Origin: Haliotis rufescens
Lineage: Eukaryota
Reading direction: 5' to 3'
Assembly: GCF_023055435.1 (NCBI RefSeq)
Contig: NW_025964112.1
Location: 40,548,001 to 40,612,000 of the forward strand
DNA: 64,000 bases
Both the position numbers and the translations under genes were made by a program. Under the pieces are notes generated by a model that saw only the letters and a program-made list of their open reading frames with translations, had not been told where the DNA came from and made no database searches. Positions 18,901 to 64,000 of this stretch are shown in pieces (positions within the stretch are counted from its first letter, which is position 1; the number at the start of each line of letters is the position of its first letter).

Positions 18901-21900
18901 ATTCTTTCATGACGTCGTTTCTAGAGATTCATTATGGTGACGTAGTAAATTGGACGATCCTATTTTTGCACCCCTATTTGTTTATTCTCCCTGCAGTGTT
19001 TTATTGCAAGATACATACTCCTCCCGTTGGTTTCTTAAATATCCAAAGTTTACTGACATGGCACAAAAACAATTCGTGGTGTAACACGTCTTCATTAAAA
19101 TGGTTTGAATATTCTATTCTTCCTCAGAGTTTGATCTCAACCCTCATACAGGTGTGCTGAAGACAAAGTCGAAGTTAGAAAGGCCATCCTACACTGTCAT
19201 TATTACTGCAACCAACGGCAATATCTCAATCAGCGGCACCTTAACAGTTATGGTCCAGAAAGCATTAGATACAAACAAGAACGATTCCCAAACTGTTCAG
19301 TTTGATAGATCCGTGTATGTGGTATCAAGACCAGTCATGGGGGATGAAGGCAAATCTCTTGTAAAAATTCGCGTTCTCGCCCCAAATGCATCTGTCATTA
19401 ACATTTCAATGGACGACGAAGGTAAGAAGGCATTCGTGTTGAAGAAAGGAAACCATTTCTGGAATCTTGTAGCCAGGCAACACGCTGTTTCTATGCCTTC
19501 TGTCATAAACCTTACCGCCATAGATCTGAATAGCACTAAAAGAGTAACTTCGTTTGTTGTGGTGAATGGTTCATTCACGATACAGGGAACACCATCCCAT
19601 ACTGAAGCTAGGACCTCAAGGGCATCTACAAACACACCATCATGCGCCACACAGTCGTCGGCCGAAATAGTTACAGCAACTGAGTCACAACATACCACAG
19701 CTTCTACAACTGTGGCAACTACGATGACGACGACGACCGTAATACCGACCACCGTTACAGCATCTACCCATCAAACTAATATTGGATCAGATTCAACAAC
19801 GATGAGAGGTAATCAGATCGTTTTTCACTAAAAACAAGATGAAACTTGTAAACAACTGGATTGGACATGCAACGTTTATTTTATGAAAGAGAGCAAAACA
19901 CCATAATTGATCTTTTTCTCCTTCACAGAATGTCCTCCCCCAAGCAAAACGAAAGAAGTTGCCTACATCAGCGTCATAGCTACCCAGGGTCTGGCTGTGG
20001 GAGCTCTGATAGGAGTTAAAGTTTTTGCAATAATGAAAAGGTTGGTAAAAATAGCGGTCAAATGTCATTGTGTCAAGGCCACTTATCTTCAAATATCGTC
20101 AACCATTTTATTTCAAAATATATATATTAAAATATGGGTTTCATATTTACACAAAGCATTTCAACTCGTCAGTTGCCACTGTAGCTGAAAAACTGATCGA
20201 GTTCACTCATCCAAAAGTTCTTTCTACAAAATCATTGATCTCTCAATCACTTGTATCTCTCATTCAGACCATGCTCCCTTTAACTCTCATAACGTCTCGA
20301 AATCATTCAACCATTTGCCCCTACACAGATCCACTCGCCTCTTTCACTCACCCCGGTCCGTGAAGATCCGGCTGAGAACTGGTCTTCAGCAACCCATACT
20401 TGTCTTAAGAGGTGACTAACAGGATCAGGTTGTCAGAATTTGAAGCATGACATTGTATCCCAATTGCGTAGATCGATGATCATAGTGTTAATCACTGGAT
20501 TGTCTGGTCCTGAATCAATTATTTACAGAGCGCCATTGCTGCTGGAATATTGCTGAGTGACGCATTAAACAACAAATAAACAGTCACCTTCTTGGTTCAC
20601 CACTGATCCCCTTTCACTTGTCCCCCTCTGTATAATGGTGATCACCACTTTGTCAGTCAAGTGACCTCTCTAACTAACCCATTAACGCCTTGGGGATTCA
20701 GAGGTAGATTAGACTATGCTTATGATATAATCCATGTAAACTTTGCTTATGCTGACACGACTGGTTGCGTTTCATCGTCTCTCGTCGAAGAGTGCTCATG
20801 TATTCAGTGACAGATTTGGCCGACGATCCAGACTCGATTGTTTGAAGGCTGCTATGAAATTTGTGGAATGTTGCTCAATGACATTCACCGGTCACTGGTC
20901 CATTAAAGCCACCTCTGACCATTCCCACTGGTTTCTTTCACACGCCCATTTAATCCTTTCATACGTCCATTGGTTCCTCTTATTAACCCACAGATTTCTC
21001 TCGCATTATCTTACGTTTTCTTATGTCTCACTCACCTGCTCATCCCTCCTACTCGATGCCACGTTTCATAGTGCAACAATTCCACCAATCCCTCTTTCAG
21101 TGCTATACAGTTCAACGACACAAGCTACTTTTTATGCTTTCTTAATATGACAGGAAAAAGAAGAAGAACGCGATAGAGCCCGAAAGGCGAGAACCTGTTG
21201 GATGTGAACCAGGTACTTTCATTTATGAAACTAGCCTATATTCAACACGTATGTCATTTCAGCTTCTTGCCAGAAACGTCATGGTAATGTCAGGAGTGGT
21301 GATTAAGCTGAGATGGCATAGTCCTTATTTATGCAGAAGTAGTTAAATAGTTAATACCATGATTTTGACGTTCCACGCACAATATTATTAAACACAAGTT
21401 TAAACTTTGTCCTTTTAGTGTGTTTGAGAAGAGATATTCGATATCTAAGTAGAACATGTAGATACGTTCCCATTGGAAAACAATTTATTCACATTCACCC
21501 ATCCTCAACTGAATGTGTTTTTTATTTCAAAGGATAACTTTGCTATTCCTCAATCACGCGTGATATGGAAATATACATTTTTTTCTTCATCATTGATCAC
21601 GTTGTGTCTAATTATTATGTTTTCTAGAACGAAATTACTCTTCAAGAAAAGGAAATATAAAAAATGAAGCCACTTGTGAAGATACCATTTTGGAGATCGA
21701 AGACGAAACCAAGAACAGAAACCATATTTATAGCAAGGATCCAGTACATGGAAAGGAGTGGACTCAAGATAACCTCAACCAACATAGCCTTAAAGATGTA
21801 AACATTGAGAGCGACGCTGTAGTGTCTGGGAAACTGTCTTGCCTTGAAGTTGGGAAAGATTGTCTCGAGGATTCCAGTTCAACACACAGTAACGATTATG

Positions 21901-23204
21901 ATACTGGTGACAAAGAATCTGTTAAACCTGATGCTGCTGATTCAGAAGTAAAACAAACATACCCTGACGAGGGGAAACGGTGTGGTACGGAAGAAAGAGG
22001 ATCTTCAGTAGTTGAACCTTCAGAACTACCAACAAACCACGAAACTGAAGATCACAGTAAAGCTGATGATTCAAATGTGTCAGATGATGTTTCTGAAAGA
22101 AAGGCAGACATCGGTACATGTCAACCTGAAGTACTGAATGAGGGAGAAACAGCCACTGATCATGAGGAGACAGATAGAAAACCTATTTTAAGAGACGAGG
22201 AAATTAAAGAGTATGATGACATTCTGAATCAAGATATGACTACAGTCGAGAGCCATGTTGAGACGGGTAATAACACCATAGAGGAACCTCTTAGGCCCAA
22301 TACTGAGGGTACATTGGATGGTGAAAAGTCAGAAGAACCGTGGAATCTCCAAGGATTGACTCCTGCATATTTAAGCCATTTGCCCGGTAACACGCCAGAA
22401 AGCCCAACACAAGACGAAGAAAAAAATGCATCTGTGTATGCAGAGAGTACTGTGAATGAGACAGTGGCTCTATCGGACTTCATTGCCCAAGATGATGACT
22501 TTGACTACACCATCAGTAGAATGGAAGAAGGAAATCGGGCAATGAAGGATAACACAATGGACACCCAAGTAAATATCGACTCTCTTCCAAATTTCCAAGT
22601 TCGTGATATGTACAGCAGAGTACACACATCACCGTCGGAGATGACCTCGCCATGCATCCTCGTCGAGAAGAGGGAACAGAAACATGTTATAAACAACACC
22701 AATATTAACAAACAAAAGGACCAGAATAAAGTATCTGGCCAAACTCAGGCTGTAGACACCCTTATATCGAGGATAAGTCCTTCTGAGGGTGCAGGCACAC
22801 AACACTCTGTCTTACCTCAAACAGGACAACTATTTCCAGAAACTGCATCTAATGCACATAAGAACAACACAAAAGTAACTGACAATGGTTTCAATTCAGA
22901 AGATGACGACGACGATGAGGAAGAAGAAGAGGAGGGGGAAGACATAAAGGAGCCAGCACCAGAAGGTAATGGTACAGCCCCTGCTACAACATACCTTTCA
23001 TCACAAACAGTGGCGGCATTGAACATAGAGTCTGTCAAGCAAGATGTGACGAGGCCCCAGGCTCAGAACATCCCAGTAGACACCATTCCCCCAGAGACCA
23101 AAAAGTCAAAAAAGGATGGAAAGAAAAAGAAAGGCGAAAAGAAAGGCAAATCAAAAAAGAAAGGTGCTTCAAAGAAAAAGAACAAGAAAGGAAAAGGAAA
23201 ATAG
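12972..23204 (+). CDS. Cadherin-repeat type I membrane protein with an N-terminal FAMeT-like (Methyltransf_FA) domain; 11 coding exons, ~1343 aa
   Basis: Hand-spliced exons: 12972-13038, 13394-13846, 14576-14813, 15596-15777, 16079-16318, 17307-17545, 17867-18050, 19128-19808, 19929-20040, 21154-21212, 21628-23204. All junctions are GT-AG with consistent phases, total 4032 nt, ending in TAG. Exon 1 is signal-peptide-like (MSTFRWNIYFVVMTTLPAVCDLG). Cadherin motifs include LDYE, PEELPVGT, LDPD, IDRD, DLNDNRPQF and WDVDEGANG. There is a Thr/Ser-rich stalk and a TM segment VAYISVIATQGLAVGALIGVKVFAIM followed by KRKKKKN. Confidence 0.85.
13394..13846 (+). CDS. Exon 2: farnesoic acid O-methyltransferase-like (Methyltransf_FA / FAMeT-like) domain
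   Basis: FSVKSCHSAVIVIS...YFLLMLG..EN...LNCDEMKDFWIRWD..GFFETGSG...INTAAITS....ALWEF follows the family pattern as I recall it: F.VKAC.DA.I.L / YEI.IGG..N / LSC.E.R.FWISW..G.I.VG / W.F. The whole domain sits in one phase 1-1 exon. Confidence 0.75.
13897..14112 (+). mobile_element. SINE-like family A, divergent subfamily, in cadherin-gene intron 2
   Basis: cccgtggaggtcc...ggacctcc...gaggcgact...gagtgcggagttaaac. Confidence 0.78.
14240..14382 (+). mobile_element. Old, degenerate SINE related to family C
   Basis: B-box-like gagttcaattc and a 3' end attgctggaatattcctgaaagcagtatgaaacgatactacac. Confidence 0.55.
14861..15135 (-). mobile_element. tRNA-derived SINE family B, in cadherin-gene intron 3
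   Basis: The reverse complement matches 9152-9423. Confidence 0.82.
17787..17850 (+). mobile_element. Young 5'-truncated SINE 3' fragment (family C) in a splice-acceptor tract
   Basis: TSD CATATTTACTCTG at 17774-17786 and 17851-17863; acceptor AG at 17865-17866. Confidence 0.9.
20357..20581 (+). mobile_element. SINE-like family A, in cadherin-gene intron 9
   Basis: ccgtgaagatccgg...ggtcttcagcaacccat...cgcattaaacaacaaataaac. Confidence 0.8.
21628..23204 (+). CDS. Terminal exon: acidic, low-complexity cytoplasmic tail with a Lys-rich C-terminus
   Basis: The acceptor ttttctag at 21627 is in frame with ORF 21690..23204. The exon is D/E-rich and ends KKSKKDGKKKKGEKKGKSKKKGASKKKNKKGKGK*. Confidence 0.85.
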
Positions 23205-26926: not shown

Positions 26927-27700
26927 TCATATCAAAGAGGGCCTTAATTCAAATCCTTCACTCCTCAAACTCCTGAACACGATAAAATATGAATTCTTGA
27001 AAGTCGGATCTGATACGGATATCGTTAATAAACTTACCATGAATTGATGAAGTTTTCTCATGTCGTGGTATAAACAAGTTATCGTTTCTCGCTTCATTTG
27101 TGGAAGATGTGACATTATTCACGAATCGTATCCGGGGTGGGTATGACATTCTGTGCGTGAGATCCGGTCTAGAACATTTTTTGGCAAAGACGGCGTGCTA
27201 GTTACGTTCACTTTACTTACTCTCAGAGCAGGGATTTCATTGACGACCCCTGGGATTAAGGTAATTATAGTGACCGTTCATTGACGTCAGCTTCAAATTA
27301 TTGGAAGTTTGTTTGAATACTTTTCGAATGTTAATCCACTTAATTGAATCGTAAACATCAATGAAACCAAATAGCTTCCCTCGTCTCATTGTGTTCTATT
27401 GTCAGTAAGGGATTAACTACTGATCGCTAATTTGATACTTAACGACCAGTAATCCCAACACGGTGTCTGGCGCTTGTCACGTTTCCACAGCAGCAACAGT
27501 AAACACAACAGTGTCACGTTCGTTATGATGCCAAGAACGTTAGCGTGACATTATAAAGTGATCAGTGTCACTTTGCATTGGATATCAGACGAGAGGTATA
27601 AAAGAAGACTGGTAGTGGGGATAGCATCACTGTCCTCGGGTAACTGAACAAAGAGCTACATTTCTTTCTTGTAACCGGAAAATTTATACAACTTACCAAC

Positions 27701-29050
27701 ATGGAGATATGTGAATCTGGGCTGTGTCTCCTTGACAATGACCACTTAGAAAACACTACAAACACTTTCAACAGAGACAACGAAGGTAAGTTGATACTCA
27801 ATGACATTACAAATACAATCGATAAAGGCAAATAAATGAACAAATAATATTCATTGATCCGTTTAATATACTATCAGGATCAGAGAATGTTATTCGTGTC
27901 TATGAAACTATTCAAATCTCTTTTAAATATATATAACACGCACATGAATCAACTCTTTATGACAAATGTATGTAACATTTTCAGATGCAAGATCGTCGGG
28001 CTATGAATCGTGTGACTCATTCACCCAGACCTCGTCACCACCTTCAACTCCATCCTCCAAAGTCAGAGCCTCATCTAGCGGCCACAAGGAGATAATGATG
28101 TACAGCAACATGGCCGACCTGTCAGAAAGTCTACAGTACATCACTAGTATGCCGGAGTTGTGTGACGTCACTTTTCTAGTTGGCAACCGGCAGCTTCCCA
28201 TTCATGGAGTTAAAGCAATCCTGGCTACCAGGAGCAGGTAAATATCCCATACAACTGAAACACGTCAATGGTCTTTTATTCGGAAACTTTTAGAAGTAAA
28301 CACCATGATAAATGTGTGTATTCTAAATTAAAGCACATGCAACAACATGATTATCTGGCAGTAAGGATTTAAGAAAGTAGCAATGCTTCAACACATACAT
28401 TTCATCCCTGTCCTTTTATAATTATTCACACGTGCAGATGTGAGTTTCCTATGAGATCTGTAGATGAAAATATACATAGTTTCCCTTCATCTTTCCAGGG
28501 TTTTCTATCAGATGATCTTGCATCACCAGAGGAAGGTCACAGAGTCGGTGAAACCTAAATCTCGACTGAGGATGAGAGCCAAGTCGTCAGCTGTCAATCT
28601 GCACAGCAAACTCCAGATCCCAATCCCAGACTACGACCATGTTGTCTTTTCCAGTCTTCTTAACTTCTTACACTCCGGCCGAGTTCGAGTACAACTTGGA
28701 ACAGTCACAGGTGAGCAGTCAAATGTGTGTGGAGGAAGAAAAAACTTTCTGTTTATGACATTCGATATTGAAGCGTTTACTCCTTTACTGTAATAAACTG
28801 TAATATCAACAGTGAATTATAATATGTTATTATGAATATAACATCCTCATATCAATGGCTGCTTCTTATTTGAACAGGTTTATTCTGTGCTGCCATAGAA
28901 TTTGGACTGAAGGATCTGCAGAAAGCATGCTGGGACTTCTTAAAACGGTGTGAAGGTGAAGATCAGAAGAGGGCTTTGATGACGTCAACACAACACTACC
29001 TTAAGAAGAAGGGAGCTCAGAAAATCTTGTCCCAAGTGTGCAGGTTGTGA
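27701..29050 (+). CDS. BTB/POZ-domain protein (serine-enriched-protein-like), copy 1 (divergent 5' end), 240 aa
   Basis: Exons 27701-27785, 27985-28237, 28499-28710, 28878-29050 (723 nt, GT-AG). BTB motifs: LCDVTFLVG, IHGVKAILATRSRVF, IPDYDHVVFSSLLNFLHSGRV, LFCAAIEFGLKDLQKACWDFL. TATAAAA at 27597 and AATAAA at ~29594. An alternative last splice at CAA|GTGTGC cannot be excluded. Confidence 0.85.
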
Positions 29051-31689
29051 TTATTTGAGGACCGTAATTGCTCTGGTTTCCTATAATACATCTCTTGGAC
29101 ACAGTCAAACTGTGGAACCATTAGTGCTTCAATATACATTTTCAACGACTGACCATTGGCTGGCATTCCGACGGCCCGGGCGAAGCTGATCAAAGTGGAA
29201 ACTGATGTCACTTCCTATTGATTGTTAACTGACGCACAATACCAGAGATGGAGATCCCTGATTTTTCTTACACAAGCGAGAAAATCAGACAGCGAGTTGA
29301 ACTTAATGCTCCTTTAAATAGTATGTCGGTTATTCTTCCGTGTGTCAGCTTAGTGAGAGACGAAAATTTGAATTGACGCAGAGGATATCTCTGAAAGGAA
29401 TATGATCGGAACGAAGCTTCGACCAGAGTGTCCTGGCACGTCTAAGGGATGTAATTATGCATAGAGAACTATGGCGTAAATATTACTGTGTAACACTACT
29501 TAATATTGTAAGTCTCTTAGATTGTACATGTGCTATATATGTATTGTTATCCCTTTATGGGAGTTGTTCGTTTTGTTCTTGTTGTCAAATGCAAATAAAA
29601 TTTAAATCAAATCATGATCCTGTGTTGTCTGCCTGATGTTCCATTTCAGGAAGACCTGATGTCAATATTGTCTAGTTATTCTATTACGTGTGACAATTTG
29701 ACATTCTTCAGGAAAAGGAATATTTTTCTAATTCTTTAATGTTTTCCTAGAGTTTATTATCACATCTTGAAGCCACTACTTTATGATTGGCCATTACATG
29801 CCTACGTACCTGAAGGTAACTAGGGCCTTGTCTGTTCTGATAGCAAAAGGCTGGATTTAACATGATAAGCGCGCAGTAGAAAGAAAAATAGTAGAAATGA
29901 AGGAATAGCAGAGAAGTAAATGGATAGTTGTTGATGAGAAAGTGATGAATTTGATCAAATATGCTGCTTCTATCCCATTTGGACAGAACAAATATCTACA
30001 TTTTACACATTGCAAGCATATAAAATACCGGCAAAAGATCATTTGGTCCAGCGCTGGAGATATTCTCTATTTTAAACAAAACCGCTGCAATAAATAGTAC
30101 AGCATTATCATTCAACCGTATCTCATCTAACATGCGTCAACTTTTGTAACTGCATTACTCTGAACCTTCATTCCAGTTGTATCGTTTTTCTTACCACAAA
30201 TCTGCAATTTCTCTCACCGTTCATCATTTGGAAATGATTAAATAAACATTTTCTATCAGTTCATTTTCCCGACATGCATGTATCTCATCCAATAACAGAT
30301 ATAAATCGAACACGCCAAGTTTTTGACTAAATGTAAACTATTTCCATACACAACATATTTAATTCAAATGCCAGAAAAGACATGTAAATCTGTCAAAAGA
30401 CGGGGAAAAGAGGCAGTGAACATGATATCATGTTGGTAGACATGGAATGGTTTCAGAAGTGATGGAATTCGAATATGATTAGTAAACACAACATGGTGCC
30501 AGTAGTCACAGAGATGTTCCTTGTATCTGTTCATATAGAACAAGATATCCGTTATCATTAATTAATGCTGTACTTGGAAGATGTAGACTGATTAAAATAC
30601 AGAATAACTGTGTTTGGTCCCCAAAAACTATCCGATGCCGATATTCAGTCACTTTTTAAGAATATTCTTTATCGCATACAGCAGTTGTTTTATGCACCCG
30701 ACATGCTATGGAGAACAATCATATCATTATTATCTGTATTATTTGTCAATACCCTCAATAATATAATCACTGTACAATTCCAACCATGCACAATATTTTC
30801 CAATTGTTATGATTGAGCAATAACTGCAAATTAATAATTTCCGCTGAGTTTCTTCACACACTTTATTCAGTATATAAAGTATATGCTCTTTGTGTCAGAC
30901 TTCAATACAAAGTGCATCTATGAAATGTAACTGTTGTTTGAACATAGAGAAAATATCCATTTCACAAGAACACAAATACATTTACAGTGTTAAACAGATT
31001 GTTATAGATTATAGGATATCGGGTGTATGATAACCTTATTAGGTTCTATAACATCGCCATCAACTCAAAAGCATGTGCATAGGGAAACTGTTGCACTGGA
31101 TTTAATGATCTTAAACTTATCAATTGAAATAGACAAGTTGATCATCCACACTATCTTCTTATCAATTACCAGTTGTTTTAGTTAACTACGGAAACAAACT
31201 CACTTGTGTATGTAATGAGATATTTGGTAAGAAAACAAGCACGTTTCTTACCATATTGATTTCTTACTTCTTCAATAAATACGGATTAAACATATTAGTA
31301 CAGTACATACAGTACGTTCATAGTATCTAATAGTTCATCTTTCTAACGGATATCCATTTTAAACACCCTTGACGCAATTTTAGGATTGTTTCTTGGAATA
31401 GGAATAGTTTTCTTCAGGTGGCGCTTTTCGTTTTATAAAGAAGCCATCATCTCGGCTCTTCATTTACGGAACGTGTGACTTTATCCACACAGCGTGTGCG
31501 GAATGAATGAGCCTTGCATGGTGCATAGTCAGAAGATTCCTTTCTTGAACAAATTCCGGAAAAGATGGATGCCACTTACTTAGTGTCAAACGCAAACAAA
31601 CTTCATTCCACTTTAGATAATTGTCAGAACATAGGTTTAAGTTTCAATGACGACTCCCGACATCACAGTAATTACAATGACCGTAAGTT

Positions 31690-32055
31690 CACTGACGTCA
31701 ACAGCGTTTTCAATCTGTTTAAATCATTTCCGAATGCTAATTCAACTAATTGAATAGTAAAAATCACTGGACGCAAATACCTTACCTAATCTGATTATGT
31801 TCTATTGTTTGTAAAGGATTAACTATTGATCGCTAATTTGATACTTAACGGCCTTTAATCCCCCGATCCCAACATGCTCTTTGGCACTTGTCACGTGACC
31901 ACAGCAGCAAAAGTAAACATTACAGTGTCACGTTCCCAATAATGCTAAGAGCGTTGGCGTGACATTGTAAAGTGATCAGTGTCACTTTGCGTTTGGCCAC
32001 GTGGTATTGGAAAAGGGGTATTAAACGTGATTTGTAGAGAGCCTAACATCACTGT
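31690..32055 (+). promoter_or_regulatory. Proximal promoter of the BTB gene (copy 2 shown; repeated in each unit)
   Basis: CRE palindrome TGACGTCA at 31693-31700, GTCACGTGAC at 31890-31899 and CCACGTGG at ~31998. The TATA position reads TATTAAA (TATAAAA in copies 1 and 8). Inr-like TCACTG lies ~30 bp downstream and the ATG is at 32123. Confidence 0.6.
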
Positions 32056-32122
32056 TCTCTGGCAATTGAACATACAGCTAATGTTCATTCTTGTAACCGG
32101 ATAACTCATACAACTAAGCAGC

Positions 32123-33510
32123 ATGAAGAGATGTGAATCTGAGCTCTGTCTCCTTGACAGCGACCTCTTAGAAAACACAACAAACACGTACAACAGAGAT
32201 AGCGAAGGTGAGTTAATACTCAATGGTATTATGTATGTAATCGATAAAGTCAAATAAATGAACACATAATATTCGTTGTTCCGTTCAGTATGCTCTCAGC
32301 ATAAAAAATACTCGTTCTGAAGAAAACATAAAAAACTTCATCTTTTATATGAAACTATGCAAAGCTCTTTCAAAATATATCTTACTTGCGCATGAAACAA
32401 GTGTCCATGTCAAATGAATGGCTAAATTTATGTAACATTTTCAGATGCAAGATCGTCGGGCTATGAATCGTGTGACTCATTCACCCAGGCCCCGTCACCA
32501 CCTTCAACTCCATCCTCCAAGGTCAGAGCCTCATCTAGCGGCCACAAGGAGGTAATGATGTACAGCAACATGGCCGACCTGTCAGAAAGTCTACAGTACA
32601 TCACTAGTATGCCGGAGTTGTGTGACGTCACTTTTCTAGTTGGCAACCGGCAGCTTCCCATTCATGGAGTTAAAGCAATCCTGGCTACCAGGAGCAGGTA
32701 AATATCCCATACAACTGAAACACGCCAATTGTCTTTTATTCGGAAACTTTTAGAAGTAAACACCGTGATAAATGTGTGTATTCCAAATTAAAGCACATGC
32801 AACAACATGATTATCTGGCAGTAAGGATTTAAGAAAGTAGCGATGCTTCAACACATACATTTCATCCCTGCCCTTTTATTATTATTCACACGTGCAGATA
32901 TGAGTTTCCTATGAGATCTGTAGATGAAAATATACATAGTTTCCCTTCATCTTTCCAGGGTTTTCTATCAGATGATCTTGCATCACCAGAGGAAGGTCAC
33001 AGAGTCGGTGAAACCTAAATCTCGACTGAGGATGAGAGCCAAGTCGTCAGCTGTCAATCTGCACAGCAAACTCCAGATCCCAATCCCAGACTACGACCAT
33101 GTTGTCTTTTCCAGTCTTCTTAACTTCTTACACTCCGGCCGAGTTCGAGTACAACTTGGAACAGTCACAGGTGAGCAGTCAAATGTGTGTGGAGGAAGAA
33201 AAAACTTTCTGTTTATGACATTCGATATTGAAGCGTTTACTCCTTTACTGTAATAAACTGTAATATCAACAGTGAATTATAATATGTTATTATGAATATA
33301 ACATCCTCATATCAATGGCTGCTTCTTATTTGAACAGGTTTATTCTGTGCTGCCATAGAATTTGGACTGAAGGATCTGCAGAAAGCATGCTGGGACTTCT
33401 TAAAACGGTGTGAAGGTGAAGATCAGAAGAGGGCTTTGATGACGTCAACACAACACTATCTTAAGAAGAAGGGAGCTCAGAAAATCTTGTCCCAAGTGTG
33501 CAGGTTGTGA
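32123..33510 (+). CDS. BTB/POZ-domain protein, copy 2
   Basis: Exons 32123-32207, 32445-32697, 32959-33170, 33338-33510. Intact; starts MKRCESELCLLDSDLL. Confidence 0.85.
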
Positions 33511-36581: not shown

Positions 36582-37969
36582 ATGAAGAGATGTGAATCTG
36601 AGCTCTGTCTCCTTGACAGCGACCTCTTAGAAAACACAACAAACACGTACAACAGAGATAGCGAAGGTGAGTTAATACTCAATGGTATTATGTATGTAAT
36701 GGATAAAGTCAAATAAATGAACACATAATATTCGTTGTTCCGTTCAGTATGCTCTCAGCATAAAAAATACTCGTTCTGAAGAAAACATAAAAAACTTCAT
36801 CTTTTATATGAAACTATGCAAAGCTCTTTCAAAATATATCTTACTTGCGCATGAAACAAGTGTCCATGTCAAATGAATGGCTAAATTTATGTAACATTTT
36901 CAGATGCAAGATCGTCGGGCTATGAATCGTGTGACTCATTCACCCAGGCCCCGTCACCACCTTCAACTCCATCCTCCAAGGTCAGAGCCTCATCTAGCGG
37001 CCACAAGGAGGTAATGATGTACAGCAACATGGCCGACCTGTCAGAAAGTCTACAGTACATCACTAGTATGCCGGAGTTGTGTGACGTCACTTTTCTAGTT
37101 GGCAACCGGCAGCTTCCCATTCATGGAGTTAAAGCAATCCTGGCTACCAGGAGCAGGTAAATATCCCATACAACTGAAACACGCCAATTGTCTTTTATTC
37201 GGAAACTTTTAGAAGTAAACACCGTGATAAATGTGTGTATTCCAAATTAAAGCACATGCAACAACATGATTATCTGGCAGTAAGGATTTAAGAAAGTAGC
37301 AATGCTTCAACACATACATTTCATCCCTGCCCTTTTATTATTATTCACACGTGCAGATATGAGTTTCCTATGAGATCTGTAGATGAACATATACATAGTT
37401 TCCCTTCATCTTTCCAGGGTTTTCTATCAGATGATCTTGCATCACCAGAGGAAGGTCACAGAGTCGGTGAAACCTAAATCTCGACTGAGGATGAGAGCCA
37501 AGTCGTCAGCTGTCAACCTGCACAGCAAACTCCAGATCCCAATCCCAGACTACGACCATGTTGTCTTTTCCAGTCTTCTTAACTTCTTACACTCCGGCCG
37601 AGTTCGAGTACAACTTGGAACAGTCACAGGTGAGCAGTCAAATGTGTTTGGAGGAAGAAAAAACTTTCTGTTTATGACATTCGATATTGTTGCGTTTACT
37701 CCTTTACTGTAATAAACTGTAATATCAACAGTGAATTATAATATGTTATTATGAATATAACATCCTCATATCAATGGCTGCTTCTTATTTGAACAGGTTT
37801 ATTCTGTGCTGCCATAGAATTTGGACTGAAGGATCTGCAGAAAGCATGCTGGGACTTCTTAAAACGGTGTGAAGGTGAAGATCAGAAGAGGGCTTTGATG
37901 ACGTCAACACAACACTACCTTAAGAAGAAGGGAGCTCAGAAAATCTTGTCCCAAGTGTGCAGGTTGTGA
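36582..37969 (+). CDS. BTB/POZ-domain protein, copy 3
   Basis: Same 4-exon structure, offset 4459 from copy 2. ATG at 36582; TGA ends at 37969. Confidence 0.85.
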
Positions 37970-41424: not shown

Positions 41425-42812
41425 ATGAAGAGATGTGAATCTGAGCTCTGTCTCCTTGACAGCGACCTCTTAGAAAACACAACAAACACGTACAACAGAG
41501 ATAGCGAAGGTGAGTTAATACTCAATGGTATTATGTATGTAATGGATAAAGTCAAATAAATGAACACATAATATTCGTTGTTCCGTTCAGTATGCTCTCA
41601 GCATAAAAAATACTTGTTCTGAAGAAAACATAAAAAACTTCATCTTTTATATGAAACTATGCAAAGCTCTTTCAAAATATATCTTACTTGCGCATGAAAC
41701 AAGTGTCCATGTCAAATGAATGGCTAAATTTATGTAACATTTTCAGATGCAAGATCGTCGGGCTATGAATCGTGTGACTCATTCACCCAGGCCCCGTCAC
41801 CACCTTCAACTCCATCCTCCAAGGTCAGAGCCTCATCTAGCGGCCACAAGGAGGTAATGATGTACAGCAACATGGCCGACCTGTCAGAAAGTCTACAGTA
41901 CATCACTAGTATGCCGGAGTTGTGTGACGTCACTTTTCTAGTTGGCAACCGGCAGCTTCCCATTCATGGAGTTAAAGCAATCCTGGCTACCAGGAACAGG
42001 TAAATATCCCATACAACTGAAACACGCCAATTGTCTTTTATTCGGAAACTTTTAGAAGTAAACACCGTGATAAATGTGTGTAATCCAAATTAAAGCACAT
42101 GCAACAACATGATTATCTGGCAGTAAGGATTTAAGAAAGTAGCAATGCTTCAACACATACATTTCATCCCTGCCCTTTTATTATTATTCACACGTGCAGA
42201 TATGAGTTTCCTATGAGATCTGTAGATGAACATATACATAGTTTCCCTTCATCTTTCCAGGGTTTTCTATCAGATGATCTTGCATCACCAGAGGAAGGTC
42301 ACAGAGTCGGTGAAACCTAAATCTCGACTGAGGATGAGAGCCAAGTCGTCAGCTGTCAACCTGCACAGCAAACTCCAGATCCCAATCCCAGACTACGACC
42401 ATGTTGTCTTTTCCAGTCTTCTTAACTTCTTACACTCCGGCCGAGTTCGAGTACAACTTGGAACAGTCACAGGTGAGCAGTCAAATGTGTTTGGAGGAAG
42501 AAAAAACTTTCTGTTTATGACATTCGATATTGAAGCGTTTACTCCTTTACTGTAATAAACTGTAATATCAACAGTGAATTATAATATGTTATTATGAATA
42601 TAACATCCTCATATCAATGGCTGCTTCTTATTTGAACAGGTTTATTCTGTGCTGCCATAGAATTTGGACTGAAGGATCTGCAGAAAGCATGCTGGGACTT
42701 CTTAAAACGGTGTGAAGGTGAAGATCAGAAGAGGGCTTTGATGACGTCAACACAACACTACCTTAAGAAGAAGGGAGCTCAGAAAATCTTGTCCCAAGTG
42801 TGCAGGTTGTGA
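41425..42812 (+). CDS. BTB/POZ-domain protein, copy 4 (TRSR to TRNR variant)
   Basis: Same structure; exon 2 ends ...ACCAGGAACAG|GT. Confidence 0.85.
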
Positions 42813-46273: not shown

Positions 46274-47661
46274 ATGAAGAGATGTGAATCTGAGCTCTGT
46301 CTCCTTGACAGCGACCTCTTAGAAAACACAACAAACACGTACAACAGAGATAGCGAAGGTGAGTTAATACTCAATGGTATTATGTATGTAATCGATAAAG
46401 TCAAATAAATGAACACATAATATTCGTTGTTCCGTTCAGTATGCTCTCAGCATAAAAAATACTTGTTCTGAAGAAAACATAAAAAACTTCATCTTTTATA
46501 TGAAACTATGCAAAGCTCTTTCAAAATATATCTTACTTGCGCATGAAACAAGTGTCCATGTCAAATGAATGGCTAAATTTATGTAACATTTTCAGATGCA
46601 AGATCGTCGGGCTATGAATCGTGTGACTCATTCACCCAGGCCCCGTCACCACCTTCAACTCCATCCTCCAAGGTCAGAGCCTCATCTAGCGGCCACAAGG
46701 AGGTAATGATGTACAGCAACATGGCCGACCTGTCAGAAAGTCTACAGTACATCACTAGTATGCCGGAGTTGTGTGACGTCACTTTTCTAGTTGGCAACCG
46801 GCAGCTTCCCATTCATGGAGTTAAAGCAATCCTGGCTACCAGGAACAGGTAAATATCCCATACAACTGAAACACGCCAATTGTCTTTTATTCGGAAACTT
46901 TTAGAAGTAAACACCGTGATAAATGTGTGTATTCCAAATTAAAGCACATGCAACAACATGATTATCTGGCAGTAAGGATTTAAGAAAGTAGCAATGCTTC
47001 AACACATACATTTCATCCCTGCCCTTTTATTATTATTCACACGTGCAGATATGAGTTTCCTATGAGATCTGTAGATGAACATATACATAGTTTCCCTTCA
47101 TCTTTCCAGGGTTTTCTATCAGATGATCTTGCATCACCAGAGGAAGGTCACAGAGTCGGTGAAACCTAAATCTCGACTGAGGATGAGAGCCAAGTCGTCA
47201 GCTGTCAACCTGCACAGCAAACTCCAGATCCCAATCCCAGACTACGACCATGTTGTCTTTTCCAGTCTTCTTAACTTCTTACACTCCGGCCGAGTTCGAG
47301 TACAACTTGGAACAGTCACAGGTGAGCAGTCAAATGTGTTTGGAGGAAGAAAAAACTTTCTGTTTATGACATTCGATATTGTTGCGTTTACTCCTTTACT
47401 GTAATAAACTGTAATATCAACAGTGAATTATAATATGTTATTATGAATATAACATCCTCATATCAATGGCTGCTTCTTATTTGAACAGGTTTATTCTGTG
47501 CTGCCATAGAATTTGGACTGAAGGATCTGCAGAAAGCATGCTGGGACTTCTTAAAACGGTGTGAAGGTGAAGATCAGAAGAGGGCTTTGATGACGTCAAC
47601 ACAACACTACCTTAAGAAGAAGGGAGCTCAGAAAATCTTGTCCCAAGTGTGCAGGTTGTGA
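46274..47661 (+). CDS. BTB/POZ-domain protein, copy 5 (TRNR variant)
   Basis: Same structure; shares the Ser-to-Asn change with copy 4. Confidence 0.85.
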
Positions 47662-51136: not shown

Positions 51137-52524
51137 ATGAAGAGATGTGAATCTGAGCTCTGTCTCCTTGACAGCGACCTCTTAGAAAACACAACAAACA
51201 CGTACAACAGAGATAGCGAAGGTGAGTTAATACTCAATGGTATTATGTATGTAATCGATAAAGTCAAATAAATGAACACATAATATTCGTTGTTCCGTTC
51301 AGTATGCTCTCAGCATAAAAAATACTTGTTCTGAAGAAAACATAAAAAACTTCATCTTTTATATGAAACTATGCAAAGCTCTTTCAAAATATATCTTACT
51401 TTCGCATGAAACAAGTGTCCATGTCAAATGAATGGCTAAATTTATGTAACATTTTCAGATGCAAGATCGTCGGGCTATGAATCGTGTGACTCATTCACCC
51501 AGGCCCCGTCACCACCTTCAACTCCATCCTCCAAGGTCAGAGCCTCATCTAGCGGCCACAAGGAGGTAATGATGTACAGCAACATGACCGACCTGTCAGA
51601 AAGTCTACAGTACATCACTAGTATGCCGGAGTTGTGTGACGTCACTTTTCTAGTTGGCAACCGGCAGCTTCCCATTCATGGAGTTAAAGCAATCCTGGCT
51701 ACCAGGAGCAGGTAAATATCCCATACAACTGAAACACGCCAATTGTCTTTTATTCGGAAACTTTTAGAAGTAAACACCGTGATAAATGTGTGTATCCCAA
51801 ATTAAAGCACATGCAACAACATGATTATCTGGCAGTAAGGATTTAAGAAAGTATCTGTGCTTCAACACATACATTTCATCCCTGCCCTTTTATTATTATT
51901 CACACGTGCAGATATGAGTTTCCTATGAGATCTGTAGATGAAAATATACATAGTTTCCCTTCATCTTTCCAGGGTTTTCTACCAGATGATCTTGCATCAC
52001 CAGAGGAAGGTCACAGAGTCGGTGAAACCTAAATCTCGACTGAGGATGAGAGCCAAGTCGTCAGCTGTCAATCTGCACAGCAAACTCCAGATCCCAATCC
52101 CAGACTACGACCATGTTGTCTTTTCCAGTCTTCTTAACTTCTTACACTCCGGCCGAGTTCGAGTACAACTTGGAACAGTCACAGGTGAGCAGTCAAATGT
52201 GTTTGGAGGAAGAAAAAACTTTCTGTTTATGACATTCGATATTGTTGCGTTTACTCCTTTACTGTAATAAACTGTAATATCAACAGTGAATTATAATATG
52301 TTATTATGAATATAACATCCTCATATCAATGGCTGCTTCTTATTTGAACAGGTTTATTCTGTGCTGCCATAGAATTTGGACTGAAGGATCTGCAGAAAGC
52401 ATGCTGGGACTTCTTAAAACGGTGTGAAGGTGAAGATCAGAAGAGGGCTTTGATGACGTCAACACAACACTACCTTAAGAAGAAGGGAGCTCAGAAAATC
52501 TTGTCCCAAGTGTGCAGGTTGTGA
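51137..52524 (+). CDS. BTB/POZ-domain protein, copy 6 (MAD to MTD variant)
   Basis: Same structure; exon 2 has AACATGACCGAC, as in copy 8. Confidence 0.85.
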
Positions 52525-55980: not shown

Positions 55981-57374
55981 ATGAAGAGATGTGAATCTGA
56001 GCTCTGTCTCCTTGACAGCGACCTCTTAGAAAACACAACAAACACGTACAACAGAGATAGCGAAGGTGAGTTAATACTCAATGGTATTATGTATGTAATC
56101 GATAAAGTCAAATAAATGAACACATAATATTTGTTGTTCCGTTCAGTATGCTCTCAGCATAAAAAATACTTGTTCTGAAGAAAACATAAAAAACTTCATC
56201 TTTTATATGAAACTATGCAAAGCTCTTTCTAAATATATCTTACTTGCGCATGAAACAAGTGTCCATGTCAAATGAATGGCTAAATTTATGTAACATTTTC
56301 ATGCTCAGATGCAAGATCGTCGGGCTATGAATCGTGTGACTCATTCACCCAGGCCCCGTCACCACCTTCAACTCCATCCTCCAAGGTCAGAGCCTCATCT
56401 AGCGGCCACAAGGAGGTAATGATGTACAGCAACATGGCCGACCTGTCAGAAAGTCTACAGTACATCACTAGTATGCCGGAGTTGTGTGACGTCACTTTTC
56501 TAGTTGGCAACCGGCAGCTTCCCATTCATGGAGTTAAAGCAATCCTGGCTACCAGGAGCAGGTAAATATCCCATACAACTGAAACACGCCAATTGTCTTT
56601 TATTCGGAAACTTTTAGAAGTAAACACCGTGATAAATGTGTGTATTCCAAATTAAAGCACATGCAACAACATGATTATCTGGCAGTAAGGATTTAAGAAA
56701 GTAGCAATGCTTCAACACATACATTTCATCCCTGCCCTTTTATTATTATTCACACGTGCAGATATGAGTTTCCTATGAGATCTGTAGATGAAAATATACA
56801 TAGTTTCCCTTCATCTTTCCAGGGTTTTCTATCAGATGATCTTGCATCACCAGAGGAAGGTCACAGAGTCGGTGAAACCTAAATCTCGACTGAGGATGAG
56901 AGCCAAGTCGTCAGCTGTCAATCTGCACAGCAAACTCCAGATCCCAATCCCAGACTACGACCATGTTGTCTTTTCCAGTCTTCTTAACTTCTTACACTCC
57001 GGCCGAGTTCGAGTACAACTTGGAACAGTCACAGGTGAGCAGTCAAATGTGTTTGGAGGAAGAAAAAACTTTCTGTTTATGACATTCGATATTGTTGCGT
57101 TTACTCCTTTACTGTAATAAACTGTAATATCAACAGTGAATTATAATATGTTATTATGAATATAACATCCTCATATCAATGGCTGCTTCTTATTTGAACA
57201 GGTTTATTCTGTGCTGCCATAGAATTTGGACTGAAGGATCTGCAGAAAGCATGCTGGGACTTCTTAAAACGGTGTGAAGGTGAAGATCAGAAGAGGGCTT
57301 TGATGACGTCAACACAACACTACCTTAAGAAGAAGGGAGCTCAGAAAATCTTGTCCCAAGTGTGCAGGTTGTGA
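55981..57374 (+). CDS. BTB/POZ-domain protein, copy 7
   Basis: Same structure, with a 6-bp insertion (atgctc) just before the intron 1 acceptor AG. Confidence 0.83.
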
Positions 57375-60300
57375 TTATTTGAGGACCGTAATTGCTCTGG
57401 TTTCCTATAATATATCTCTTGGACACAGTCAAACTGTGGAACCATTAGTGCTTCAATATACATTTTCAACGACTGACCACTGGCTGGCATTCCGACGGCC
57501 CGGGCGAAGCTGATCAAAGTGGAAACTGATGTCACTTCCTATTGATTGTTAACTGACACACAATACCAGAGATGGAGATCCCTGATTTTTCTTACACAAC
57601 GAGAAAATCAGACAGCGAGTTGAACTTAATGCTCCTTTAAATAGTATGTCGGTTATTCTTCCGTGTGTCAGCTTAGTGAGAGACGAAAATTTGAATTGAC
57701 GCAGGAGATATCACTGAAAGGAATATGATCGGAACGAAGCTTCGACCAGAGTGTCCTGGCACGTCTAAGGGATGTAACTATGCATAGAGAACTATGGCGT
57801 GAATATTACTGTGTAACACTACTTAATATTGTAAGTCTCTTAGATTGTACATGTGCTATATATGTATTGTTATCCCTTTATGGGAGTTGTTCGTTTTGTT
57901 CTTGTTGTCAAATGCAAATAAAATTTAAATCAAATCATGATCCTGTGTTGTCTGCCTGATGTTCCATTTCAGGAAGACCTGATGTCAATATTGTCTAGTT
58001 ATTCTATTACGTGTGACAATTTGACATTCTTCAGGAAAAGGAATATTTTTCTAATTCTTTAATGTTTTCCTAGAGTTTATTATCACATCTTGAAGCCACT
58101 ACTTTATAATTGGCCATTACATGCCTACGTACCTGAAGGTAACTAGGGCCTTGTCTGTTCTGATAGCAAAAGGCTGGATTTAACATGATAAGCAGTAGAA
58201 AGAAAAATAGTAGAAATGAAGGAATAGCAGAGAAGTAAATGGATAGTGGTTGATGAGAAAGTGATGAATTTGATCAAATATGCTGCTTCTATCCCATTTG
58301 GACAGAACAAATATCTACATTTTACACATTGCAAGCATATAAAATACCGGCAAAAGATCATTTGGTCCAGCGCTGGAGATATTCTCTATTTTAAACAAAA
58401 CCGCTGCAATAAATAGTACAGCATTATCATTCAACCGTATCTCATCTAACATACGTCAACTTTTGTAACTGCATTACTCTGAACCTTCATTCCAGTTGTA
58501 TCGTTTTTCTTACCACAAATCTGCAATTTCTCTCACCGTTCATCATTTGGAAATGATTAAATAAACATGTTCTATCAGTTCATTTTCCCGACATGCATGT
58601 ATCTCATCCAATAACAGATATAAATCGAACACGCCAAGTTTTTGACTAAATTTTAACTATTTTCATACACAACATATTTAATTCAAATGCCAGAAAAGAC
58701 ATGTAAATCTGTCAAAAGACGGGGAAAAGAGGCAGTGAACATGATATCATGTTGGTAGACATGGAATGGTTTCAGAAGTGATGGAATTCGAATATGATTA
58801 GTAAACACAACATGGTGCCAGTAGTCACAGAGATGTTCCTTGTATCTGTTCATATAGAACAAGATATCCGTTATCATTAATTAATGCTGTACTTGGAAGA
58901 TGTAGACTGATTAAAATACAGAATAACTGTGTTTGGTCCCCAAAAACTATCCGATGCCGATATTCAGTCACTTTTTAAGAATATTCTTTATCGCATATGG
59001 TTTGTCCATTTAATAAATAAGCAGTGGTTTGTTGTTTTCATTTATATCCATATTTTTATATTATGTCCATATTTCATGTACAATGCAAATTACCACTGTT
59101 ATAAATAGCATACCACACATGTTAACAACAAATATAACGCGAATCTATTGCAGTCAAAGCAACATCTTGCAATATTCATTCTCAACGTGTCTCTATTATG
59201 TTTTATATTTGTTATTTGGTGGGTTTTTTCACAATTTAAGGTGTATACATACATTTTAATGTCGTAAAGTTTAACTCAAGTTTGACTCCATGCCTCATTT
59301 CTAAGTAAGATTAATTCCACATCGTCTATCTGAATCCAGTTTCGATAATGACATTTCCACAACATCCAGTGCGACACGAGCTCACACAGCAGTTGTTTTA
59401 TGCACCCGACATGCTATGGAGAACAATCATATCATTATTATCTGTATTATTTGTCAAAACCCTCAATAATATATACACTGTACAATTCCAACCATGCATG
59501 GAAAGAATATTTCCGAATTGTTGTGATTGAGCAACAACTGCAAATTAATAATTTCCGCTGAGTTTCTTCACACACTTTATTCAGTATATAAAGTATAATA
59601 TATTTTTTTATGCTCTTTGTGTCAGACTTCAATACAAAGTGCATCTATGAAATGTAACTGTTGTTTGAACATAGAGAAAATATCCATTTCACAAGAACAC
59701 AAATACATTTACAGTGTTAAACAAATTTAATGATTATAGGATATCGGGTGTATGATAACCTTATTAGGTTCTATATCATCGCCATCAACTCAAAAGCATG
59801 TGCATAGGGAAACTGTTGCACTGGATTTAATGATCTTAAACTTATCAATTGAAATAGACAAGTTGATCATCCACACTATCTTGTTATCAATTACCAGTTG
59901 TTTTAGTTAACTACGGAAACAAAGCCACTTGTGTATGTAATGAGATATTTGGTAAGAAGACGAGCACGTTTCTTACCATATTGATTTCTTACTTCTTCAA
60001 TAAACACGAAATAAACATATTGGTACGGTACATACAGTACGTTCATAGTATCTAATAGTTCATCTTTCTAACGGATATCCATTTTAAACACCCTTGACGC
60101 AATTTTAGGATTGTTTCTTGGAATAGGAATAGTTTTCTTCAGGTGGCGCTTTTCGTTTTATAAAGAAGCCATCATCTCGGCTCTTCATTTACGGAACGTG
60201 TGACTTTATCCACACAGCGTGTGCGGAATGAATGAGCCTTGCATGGTGCATAGTCAGGAGGTTCCTTTCTTGAACAAATTCCGGAAAAGATGGATGCCAC

Positions 60301-61487
60301 TTACTCAGTGTCAAACGCAAACAAACTTCATTCCACTTTAGATGATTGTCAGAACACAGGTTTCATTGACGACTCCCGACATCACAGTAATTACAATGAC
60401 CGTAAGTTCACTGACGTCAGCAGCGTTTTCAATCTGTTTAAATCATTTCCGAATACTAATTCAACTAATTGAATAGTAAAAATCACAGATTGTTATAGTT
60501 TAAAGGATGTCGGGTGTTTAACTTTATTAGGTTCTATAACATTGCCATAAACTCAAAGGCATGTGCATAGGGAAACTGTTGGACTGGATTTAATTATCTT
60601 AAACTTATCAATTGTAATAGAGAAGTTGATCATCCACACTCTCTTGTTATCATTACCACTTGTTATAGTTAACTGCGAAAACTGTATGTAATGAGATATT
60701 TGGTAAGAAAATAAGCCCCTTTCTCAATATATGAATTTGATACTTCTTCAATAAATACTAAATAAACCTACTAGGCATAGTACGTTAATTGTATCTAATA
60801 GTTCATCTTTATGACAGATATCAATTTTAACCACCCTTGACGCAATTTTAGAATATTTTCTTGGAATTGAAAAAGTTTTCTTCAGGCGGCGCACTTCGCT
60901 GTAGAAAGAAGCCATCACCTTGACTCTTCATTTCCGGAACGTGTGACGTTATCCACAAATCGTGTGCGGGATGGATGTGGCTTTCCAGAACAAATTCTGG
61001 ATAAGATGGAGTGGATGCCACTTACTTACTGTCAAACTCAAACAAACTTCATTTCACTTTAGATGATTGTTAGAACACAGGTTTCATTGACGACTCCCGG
61101 GATCGCGGTAATTACAATGACCGTAAGTTCACTGACGTCAGTAGCGTTTTCAATCTGTCTAAATGATTTTCGAATGTTAATCCGCATAATTGAATAGTAA
61201 AAATCACTGGAACAAAATACCTTACCTACTCTCATTGTGTTCTATTGTTTGTAAAGGATTAACTATTGATCGCTAATTTGATGCTTAACGACCTTTAATC
61301 CCCCGATCCAAACATGCTCTTTGGCACTTGTCACGTGACCACAGCAGCAAAAGTAAACATTACAGAGTCACGTTCGTAATACTGCTAAGAGCGTTGGCGT
61401 GACATTATAAAGTGATCAGTGTCACTTTGCGTTTAGCCACGTGATATTGGAAAGGGGGTATAAAACGTGACTTGTAGAGAGCCTGGC

Positions 61488-62586
61488 CTCCAAACACACA
61501 GGTTTCGGAGTCCATACCACACAACCAACTAAAACTACACAATCCTTCCGACTCCCAAACAACCAATCAATATTCACGGCAGAACTAATGGGCATGGCCT
61601 CAGCCCTCCATAGTCAAGAATCCAAAAACCACAATAAAATCCTAATACTTACCGACTCCCTAAGTGGACTGCAAGCCCTCCAAAACAAAAATACCAAAAA
61701 CCGACCTAAATTAATAAATCTAATACTTAAAAGCTCCAACGACCTAACTAACGCAGGCAAACAAATAACCTTCTTGTGGATACCCGCCCACGTAGGAATA
61801 TACGGTAATGAAAACGCCGATAAGGCAGCTAAACTATCCCTCAAAATCCCAGAAATAAGCTTAAACTTACCCATCTCAAAATCAGAAATTAAAAGTGTAA
61901 ATAAGCAAAAAATCACCAAAAAATGGCATAACCTATATCTTAACTCAAATAGCCAAATCAAAAAGGTACTCAGCAAACCACTAACCAAACCAAAAATTCA
62001 CCATCCATCAAAAAAAATCGACAGAGTAATCACTAAACTCCAAACAGGACACACCAACCTAAATAACCACCTAAAAAAAATAAAAAAACATACTACAGGT
62101 AACTGCCCACACTGCAAACAACTAGAAACCCCAGAACACGCACTCATCTACTGCACACACTACCTAACACATCGAACCGCATTACAAACCACCCTCAATC
62201 TAAACAAGGCTCTCACTCTAGAAGCAATACTAAACCCACAAAATAAACTAGAAAACTTCAAGGCCTTAGGCGTATTCTTAATCAAAACGGAACTAATAAA
62301 ACGCATCTAAAAACACCATAATCCACCAAATCAAAATTACATAAACACACAAACATCCACCATACCCAGCTCCCTTAGTTCTCCTCCCCTACCCCATTGG
62401 CATCTATTCCAAATCTCAAAATTCCCAAATTCTATATAAGCAACCCCTAAAGCCCCCTCTTGGGTTGCGCACACCACTTTCGCCCCTTTCGGAAACACAT
62501 TAAATGGCCTGGCCGGGCCCGTGTGCGAAATACGCATCAGTCGGAAAGCGCACGTTAAATCTCCAAAGTAAGTAAGTAAGTAAGTA
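61488..62586 (+). mobile_element. 5'-truncated non-LTR retrotransposon (I-group/Nimb-like): RNase H domain, CCHC knuckle, 3' UTR and (TAAG)n tail
   Basis: RNase H motifs SIFTAEL, ILTDSLS and WIPAHVGIYGNENADKAAK. C-terminal LQTGH...CPHCKQLETPEHALIYC; stop at 62310. The tail is aagtaagtaag. Target-site duplication AGAGCCTGGC at 61478-61487 and 62587-62596. Absent from the other units. Confidence 0.93.
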
Positions 62587-62673: not shown

Positions 62674-64000
62674 ATGAAGAGGTGTGAATCTGAGATCTGT
62701 CTACTTGATAACGACCTCTTAGAAAACACAATAAACACGTACAACAGAGATAGCGAAGGTGAGTTAATACTCCATGGTATTATGTATGCAATCGATAAAG
62801 TCAAATAAATGAAATTACATAATAATCATTGTTCCGTTCAGTATGCTATCAGCATTAAATAATACTTGTTGTTCTGAAGCAAGCTTAAACTAAATTCAAC
62901 TTTTAAATGAAACTATGCAAAGCTCTTTCAAAATATATCTTACTTGCGCATGGAACAACTCTCCAGGTCAAATGAATGGCTAAATTTAGGTAACATTTTC
63001 AGATGCAAGATCGTCGGGCTATGAATCGTGTGACTCATTCACCCAGACCCCGTCACCACCTTCAACTCCATCCTCCAAAGTCACAGCGTCATCTAGCGGC
63101 CACAAGGAGGTAATGGTGTACAGCAACATGACCGACCTGTCAGAAAGTCTGCAGTACATTACTAGTATGCCGGAGTTGTGTGACGTCACTTTTCTAGTTG
63201 GCCACCGGCAGCTTCCCGTTCATGGAGTTAAAGCAATCCTGGCTACCAGGAGCAGGTAAATATCCCATACAACTGAAACACGCCAATGGCGTATTATTCG
63301 GAAACTTTTAGAAGTAAAAGTTAATGTGTGTATTCCAAATTAAAGCACATGCAACAACATGGTTATCTGGCAGTAAGGATTTCCAAAAGTATCTGTGCTT
63401 CAACACATACATTTAATCCCGGCACTTTTATAATTATTCACCCAAGTAGATATGAGTTTCCTATGAGATCTGTAGTGGAAAATATAAATAGTTTTCCTTC
63501 ATCTTTCCAGGGTTTTCTATCAGATGATCTTGCATCACCAGAGGAAGGTCACCGAGTCGGTGGAACCCAAATCTCGACTGAGGATGAGAGCCAAGTCGTC
63601 AACTGTCAATCTGCACAGCAAACTCCAGATACCAGTCCCAGACTACGACCATGATGTCTTTTCCAGTCTTGTTAACTTCTTACACTCGGGTCGAGTTCGA
63701 GTACAACTAGGGACAGTCACAGGTAAGCAGTAAAATGTGTTTGAGGAAGAAAAACGTTTCTGCTTATGACATTCGATATTGAATCATTTACCCCTTTTCT
63801 ATAATAAACTGTAATATCAACACTGATTTATAAAAGGTTATTATACATAACATCACCATATCAATGGCTGCTTCTTATTTGTACAGGTTTATTCTGTGCT
63901 GCCATAGAATTTGGACTAAAAGATTTGCAGAAGGCATGCTGGGACTTCTTGAAACGGTGTGAAGGTGAAGATCAGAAGAAGGCTTTGATGGCGTCAACAC
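62674..64000 (+). CDS. BTB/POZ-domain protein, copy 8 (divergent; runs off the window end; promoter interrupted by a LINE)
   Basis: Exons 62674-62758, 63003-63255, 63511-63722 and 63887 to beyond 64000. The frame is intact as far as visible. Confidence 0.8.

Follow-up and report, generated by a model that had tools for sequence, protein, structure and literature searches.

An array of eight BTB-domain genes in the red abalone, probably kept uniform by unequal exchange, with edges frozen in steps and a mosaic first copy

Eight same-strand, head-to-tail copies of a four-exon BTB-domain gene lie within the 64-kb window of Haliotis rufescens DNA that forms the whole stretch analysed here, and their layout is probably to be read as (A/C)-Cx6-B, that is, as a long-lived array that has been kept uniform by unequal exchange, whose edges have frozen and whose first copy is a mosaic. 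This model proposes that repeated unequal crossover and conversion homogenise the interior copies, and that the sequence nearest each boundary, being replaced least often, would come to freeze. The promoter, exon 1 and intron 1 of copy 1 would have been the first to drop out of the exchange, and copy 8 would have dropped out later, as a whole unit; a later deletion may have left a C-type stump before copy 8, and a LINE fragment may have split the core promoter of that copy. The body of copy 1 would have been overwritten by the array, with its old 5' end joined at exon 2, and exchange between copy 1 and the array may have stopped where intron 1 meets exon 2 and homology drops to ~78%. The outcome would be a single protein body behind two promoter types, A once and C six times. 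It is held to be very probable that the gene which recombined at exon 2 was copy 1, a proposition shared by this model and by a rival in which the array was born from a crossover of two paralogs.

The start codons of copies 1-8 are found at 27701, 32123, 36582, 41425, 46274, 51137, 55981 and 62674, the repeat unit is protein-coding and 4.5-4.9 kb long, and units 2-7 differ from one another by only 0.22-0.71% in pairwise comparison. Copies 1-7 encode 240 aa each, and their proteins are identical to H. rufescens RefSeq entries named 'serine-enriched protein-like', which is an automatic label. Exons 1 and 2 of copy 1 occupy 27701-27785 and 27985-28237 on the + strand. Copy 2, of C type, extends from promoter to stop over 31642..33510 (+), with exons at 32123-32207, 32445-32697, 32959-33170 and 33338-33510, and the other C-type copies, likewise on the + strand, run from ATG to stop at 36582..37969 (copy 3), 41425..42812 (copy 4), 46274..47661 (copy 5), 51137..52524 (copy 6) and 55981..57374 (copy 7). 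Copy 7 is further distinguished by a private 6-bp insertion beside the intron 1 acceptor, by which splicing might be weakened; the insertion (~56299-56308, just before the acceptor) is not in the contigs of three of three DNA-like sequencing runs, among the matches listed. Copy 8, of B type (62674..64000, +), has exons at 62674-62758, 63003-63255, 63511-63722 and 63887 to the window end, which it reaches inside exon 4 with its frame open over the 221 codons seen; its introns are 9-12% from those of copy 2, and its protein matches none of the cluster members (12 of 12 compared).

The seam near exon 2 was central to the original prediction, in which an unequal crossover between two older paralogs placed the BTB body of A under the promoter of B and the hybrid was then amplified into copies 2-7. 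The strings quoted in its favour were all recovered in place, including the exon 1 peptides of copy 1, of copies 2-7 and of copy 8; the intron 1 donor is GTAAG in copy 1 and GTGAG in copies 2-8, the body markers of exons 3 and 4 are VKPK and DHVV in copies 1-7 as opposed to VEPK and DHDV in copy 8, and the intron 3 donors differ accordingly (gtgagcagtc versus gtaagcagta). The switch of nearest neighbour along the gene is also real: of 219 informative sites, copy 2 is copy-8-like at 118 of the 145 that precede 32492-32526 and at 5 of the 74 that follow, a contrast that goes far beyond chance and that none of 2000 permutations equalled. Max-chi-square served as the breakpoint test, and a three-taxon clock likelihood as the test of direction. 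The resemblance of the promoter, exon 1 and intron 1 of copies 2-7 to copy 8 holds relative to copy 1, but copy 2 is only ~91% alike there (62/700 non-coding sites differ), which is no closer than the likeness of the same two copies in the 3' introns (45/419 sites differ). Exon 2, described as mosaic, does contain both kinds of site, yet it is mostly copy-1-like (8 sites shared with copy 1, 2 with copy 8 and 2 private to copy 2). K131, the lysine of VKPK, had been taken as a mark of A ancestry, but it cannot serve as one: each of the six columns of the species table other than copy 8, H. rubra and H. asinina among them, has K131, and E131 is private to copy 8. In copy 1 the densely differing stretch extends to 27968, 16 bases ahead of exon 2. 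A seam at the intron 1/exon 2 boundary and the involvement of unequal exchange are thereby supported, but the proposed direction, with an A body under a B promoter in copies 2-7, is probably wrong, because the distance between copies 2 and 8 is flat while both distances to copy 1 drop at the seam.

A switch of nearest neighbour arises whichever of three genes has recombined, and the parents are the pair whose distance stays constant. Copies 2 and 8 differ at 34/386 sites in the promoter, 23/237 in intron 1, 26/255 in intron 2 and 19/164 in intron 3, or, when pooled, by 8.9% in 5' non-coding sequence versus 10.7% in the 3' introns (Fisher p 0.34). Copies 1 and 8 differ by 20.6% on the 5' side of the seam versus 11.2% on the 3' side (p 5.5e-5), and copies 1 and 2 by 21.8% versus 1.9%. 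Synonymous sites behave in the same manner, with 15/133 (11%) differing between copies 1 and 8 in exons 2-4 as against 7/15 in exon 1, and 16/133 between copies 2 and 8 in exons 2-4. By clock likelihood with one rate, the model in which the interior copies are B/A hybrids was rejected for each of copies 2-7 (p 7.5e-6 to 3.1e-5); the model of a mosaic copy 1 was not rejected, at borderline values (p 0.055-0.16), and was ~7-9 log units better with an equal number of parameters for each of copies 2-7, the six tests being non-independent. Freely estimated splits were 0.041 for the 5' part and 0.060 for the 3' part, with 0.122 for the 5' end of copy 1. The borderline fit of the mosaic model may be due to constraint on the proximal promoter, because the distal upstream regions are 13% apart and the proximal ones 7%.

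Divergence climbs stepwise to both ends of the array, as is expected of concerted evolution, although the two edges are unlike. On the left the steps are of 21%, 2% and 0-1%. The A-type promoter, 5' UTR, exon 1 and intron 1 of copy 1 (27150..27968, +) stand ~21-22% from both copy 2 and copy 8, with private columns at 94/440 in promoter and UTR, 12/85 in exon 1 and 42/199 in intron 1. Exon 2 and intron 2 of the same copy (27969..28498, +) are array-type and would represent an older exchange tract, differing from copy 2 at 12/514 sites and carrying 4/253 and 7/261 private substitutions, respectively. Exon 3, intron 3 and exon 4 (28499..29050, +) have no private column among 552 when set against copies 2-7, and the 3' flank of unit 1 has 8 private substitutions in 1239. 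On the right the steps are of under 1%, 3-4% and 7-13%: spacer 7 is less than 1% from the other spacers up to ~59200 and then 3-4% from them (59221..59733). On the right, then, the recently homogenised sequence stops within the spacer, whereas on the left it stops within the gene; one crossover near exon 2 would set both edges at the same place in the unit. A spacer segment of ~385 bp (58998..59382) is carried by spacers 3-7 and missing from the first two (in spacer 1, at 30677), which sets units 1-2 apart from units 3-7, and no target duplication was seen at this indel.

Between spacer 7 and copy 8 lies a truncated C-type upstream region (block 1; 59734..60486, +), 22/806 sites away from that of copy 2, which is likely the stump of a deleted C unit. 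It is followed by copy 8's own upstream sequence and proximal promoter (60485..61487, +), which differ from those of copy 2 at 91/701 distal and 20/295 proximal sites. A local 770-bp duplication that produced blocks 1 and 2, with one block lost from copy 2, was considered and rejected, as copy 2 tracks block 1 over its full length and at least two runs have copy 8 without block 1 before it. The promoter of copy 8 is split by a 1109-bp insertion, absent from the original prediction, that lies between an element at 61459, which we take to be a TATA-like box, and the 5' UTR. The inserted sequence is a 5'-truncated LINE-like fragment (61488..62586, +) with an RNase H domain (PF00075, E 8e-13), a tail of 4-bp repeats and a 10-bp target duplication (61478-61487 and 62587-62596). 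Its 5' truncation, simple-repeat tail, target duplication and RNase H domain, together with an empty site elsewhere, are those of a non-LTR retrotransposon, the empty site being found in at least one sequencing run. Copy 8 is probably decaying. The contig depth of the LINE-like fragment is thousands of times that of its flanks in three runs, and it therefore belongs to a very abundant family.

Other individuals were represented by 4 of 24 listed runs, of which three are DNA-like and one is RNA-like, compared over 55300-64000 of the window, with copy 1 outside this coverage. A joint of 59720 to 60485, by which the upstream region of copy 8 follows without the stump, occurs in at least two of the three DNA-like runs, these being labelled as different organisms; in one such run the DNA before the joint is spacer-like and differs from that of the window at 38/280 letters, such that the stumpless copy 8 upstream region sits there beside its own older spacer. 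The stump is missing in two runs, and therefore the structure before copy 8 varies among species or individuals. A second class of 3' flank, 10-14% from that of the array, is present in all four runs, and a position before or after copy 8 is equally compatible with it; no contig crosses position 64000 in the four runs compared. In three runs the C unit has a contig depth several times that of copy 8, contig depth being no measure of copy number. In the RNA-like run, which bears another organism label, intron 2 is spliced out in a C-like contig and exon 1 is not seen, so that the run is compatible with use of any of the promoters; its lack of coverage over exon 1 of copy 8 carries no weight. 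A joint of 56638 to 63309 in one run, with 74 letters on its short side, was set aside as a likely mapping effect.

Comparable sets of proteins exist in other abalones. H. cracherodii, the black abalone, has eight similar proteins on one contig, with gene order taken from accession order only; in H. asinina one contig encodes at least seven near-identical but distinct proteins (1-3 aa of difference) whose accessions run consecutively; and H. rubra has one. A two-gene A-B state was seen in none of the few species compared (8, 7 and 1 proteins, respectively). The first H. cracherodii protein in accession order has E2 and G7 in common with copy 1, but lacks its I3, H15, S45 and I65 and has the array-type S13, and the last has I8, T56, V101 and D161 as in copy 8, with a divergent C-terminus. 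From these protein sequences, the black abalone appears to have the same edge types as the red. Of these H. cracherodii edge proteins (P0010 and P0017), the first is also without nine exon 1 residues and has several private changes. The H. asinina proteins P0002, P0018-P0021, P0023 and P0024 form a homogenised set of their own, with no distinct edge protein among the seven seen. Residue A144 is found in copies 1-7 versus T in copy 8 and in all eight H. cracherodii proteins, and V210 is found in the first and the six middle H. cracherodii proteins. Each first copy therefore carries the array variant of its own species (A144 in red, V210 in black), which shows that exchange went on after the split. 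Interior copies are more alike within species than between them, at 1-2 aa within red, 1-8 within black and 6-13 between, the ranges overlapping because of one black-abalone protein. It seems that copy 1 has kept a different promoter since before the red-black split while its body was refreshed from the array. A protein tree with six distant relatives does not fix the root (p-AU 0.276 for both rival groupings), and a tree of the N-terminal part gives no firm placement of copy 1. With a rate of 8.6e-9 per generation and 6-year generations, as given in a preprint (bioRxiv 10.1101/2024.09.16.613283), the layers of the array date roughly, and crudely, to 84, 36, 11 and 8 million years. The same source gives 4.3 million years for the ancestor of the Californian abalones and 36.4 million for the East-West Pacific split, and the crude ages fit edges older than the red-black split and an interior homogenised around or after it.

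Several other histories could have produced this arrangement. Unlikely, though by no means negligible, is an origin of the array by unequal crossover of A with B, either after conversion had made their bodies alike or with the crossover itself near the 3' end, such that the unit would consist of a B promoter, a B-like body and an A 3' flank and the exon 2 seam would mark where copy 1 stopped exchanging. The geometry of A, units and B with a repeated A-B spacer is the expected product of such a crossover (PMC4041002); the flat distance between copies 2 and 8 is fitted equally well, and the deeper 3' split (0.060 versus 0.041) fits a body that stopped exchanging slightly earlier. However, the H. 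asinina set of at least seven near-identical proteins suggests a multi-copy rather than a two-gene ancestor, and a 3'-flank class only 10-14% from that of the array does exist, though unplaced relative to copy 8. A very improbable possibility is that the array, or the seam of copy 1, is an artefact of assembly. Units as similar as 2-7 and a seam that lies outside the read coverage would be in keeping with an artefact, but the units share structured indels and substitutions, copy 1 has private changes on both sides of its seam, and the eight similar proteins of H. cracherodii on one contig present the same edge types. In addition, the only run of N in the window is an assembly gap of 185 bases at 8030-8214, outside the array, which is itself without N.

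The direction set out in the original prediction, with the body of an old paralog A brought under the B promoter by crossover near exon 2 and the hybrid amplified, is improbable, and would have to attribute the low 3' distance to copy 8 to slower 3' evolution or to partial earlier conversion. It accommodates the sharp switch of nearest neighbour, the grouping of first and middle copy bodies apart from copy 8 in each of the two species (90/89 support, not starred) and a tree root that the distant relatives do not fix. However, introns 2-3 and synonymous sites would need to evolve only half as fast as the 5' part (ratio 0.50, 95% interval 0.35-0.70), and would have to arrive by chance at the 9-13% that the upstream region and intron 1 show. 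Among copies 2-7, 5/237 columns vary in intron 1 and 9/428 in introns 2-3 (14 columns in all), and these few sites give no sign that the 3' introns evolve slowly. Further, a single rate leads to rejection at p ~2e-5, and private changes are as numerous in the 5' part of copy 2 as in that of copy 8 (31 and 27), so that the former is no recent copy of B. It is improbable that a true anti-Lepore hybrid, with an A body under a B promoter that bears two additional E-boxes, became fixed before the Californian abalones diverged. If it was, the hybrid would have been amplified to about six copies per species and replaced its B parent, with B lost separately through the LINE in the red promoter and the altered C-terminus in black, and the array would be an invertebrate counterpart of the elephant HBB/HBD fusion to which dosage amplification had been added.

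The preferred reading, of a long-lived exchanging array with a mosaic first copy, can be set beside three known systems. The Lepore and anti-Lepore rearrangements of mammalian HBD and HBB (PMC4041002) resemble the array in that the paralogs have one orientation, the seam parts the promoter side from the body, the cause is unequal crossover or conversion, and a flanking gene appears to decay; in the anti-Lepore case, the middle gene is the fusion and both parents were intact at its birth. In the abalone array, by contrast, it is copy 1 that appears from the distances to be the fusion, whether Lepore-like or converted, and copies 2-7 resemble sisters of copy 8 over the whole gene. Same-strand paralogs with a neighbour switch inside the middle gene are indeed present, but the array lacks two further anti-Lepore features, under equal rates: the flanking genes do not behave as non-recombinant parents at constant distance, as the distance between copies 1 and 8 changes (which assumes equal rates), and the middle gene is not much closer to B in its 5' part than in its 3' part (8.9% versus 10.7%), a small difference being still compatible. 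The Rsp satellite arrays of Drosophila (PMC5411766) have a homogenised centre, divergent ends and elements at those ends, and the abalone array resembles them in its homogeneous centre, divergent ends and transposable element at one end. Unlike Rsp, its unit is a protein-coding one of 4.5-4.9 kb in eight copies, and one edge keeps an open frame under another promoter. The chicken BG array is similar in that two promoter types stand on shared bodies by way of unequal crossover or deletion; expression by promoter type was measured in chicken (PMC4046983), whereas the abalone array is known from sequence and has its second promoter on one copy only. No new mechanism is revealed by the abalone array, the process being already known. 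As most likely read, it offers a clean and fully resolved case of array ends freezing in steps, and it carries the caution that a nearest-neighbour switch does not say which gene is the hybrid. It also brings to notice a little-studied BTB gene kept at ~7-8 copies in three abalone species, and the A and C promoters, as a candidate difference, raise the question of differing tissue or stress expression.

With regard to the protein, a scan of relatives found one BTB domain (PF00651) and no other Pfam family, the relatives P0001 and P0002 scoring 59-61 bits versus a cut-off of 20.5; P0001 is 94% identical to the copy 1 protein, and relatives at 36-50% occur in abalones, limpets, scallops and a clam. 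Many BTB proteins are Cullin-3 substrate adaptors. It is a guess, drawn from motifs, that the present protein is a short-lived adaptor of Cullin-3 type under cAMP or stress control. The motif SSGY(E/D)S at the start of exon 2 (e.g., 32456-32473) is kept in 15 of 15 aligned proteins, out to limpet and scallop, and presumably resembles a beta-TrCP phosphodegron, for which it is a candidate. All three promoter types (A, B and C) have kept TGACGTCA, which occurs at 24565, 25324, 27282, 31693, 60412 and 61133, with two extra sites upstream of copy 1 and others in exons 2 and 4. The promoter of copy 2 holds the TGACGTCA at 31693 together with CACGTG at 31892 and 31998, and the two CACGTG sites of the C and B promoters are absent from the proximal promoter of copy 1. 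We take TGACGTCA to be a candidate CRE and CACGTG a candidate E-box, by which cAMP or stress control would be possible. Counts against shuffled sequence (27 versus 0.82 for TGACGTCA and 25 versus 10.4 for CACGTG) are inflated by the repeats and are not read as enrichment. No published account of this array or of the BTB family was found, subscription journals and some supplements being outside the scope of the search, and the array is not mentioned in PMC12070547 (text and three supplement files), PMC9936805 (text) or PMC13229213 (text). Elsewhere in the window, a minisatellite at 10626-12871 comprises 52 copies of a 43-bp unit with 93% matches, and long open frames on the + strand at 13312-13893, 19109-19831 and 21612-23204 are likely exons of one or more upstream genes; one of these frames, by eye, we take to be cadherin-like with a Thr-rich stretch, and another is acidic and ends in a Lys-rich segment.
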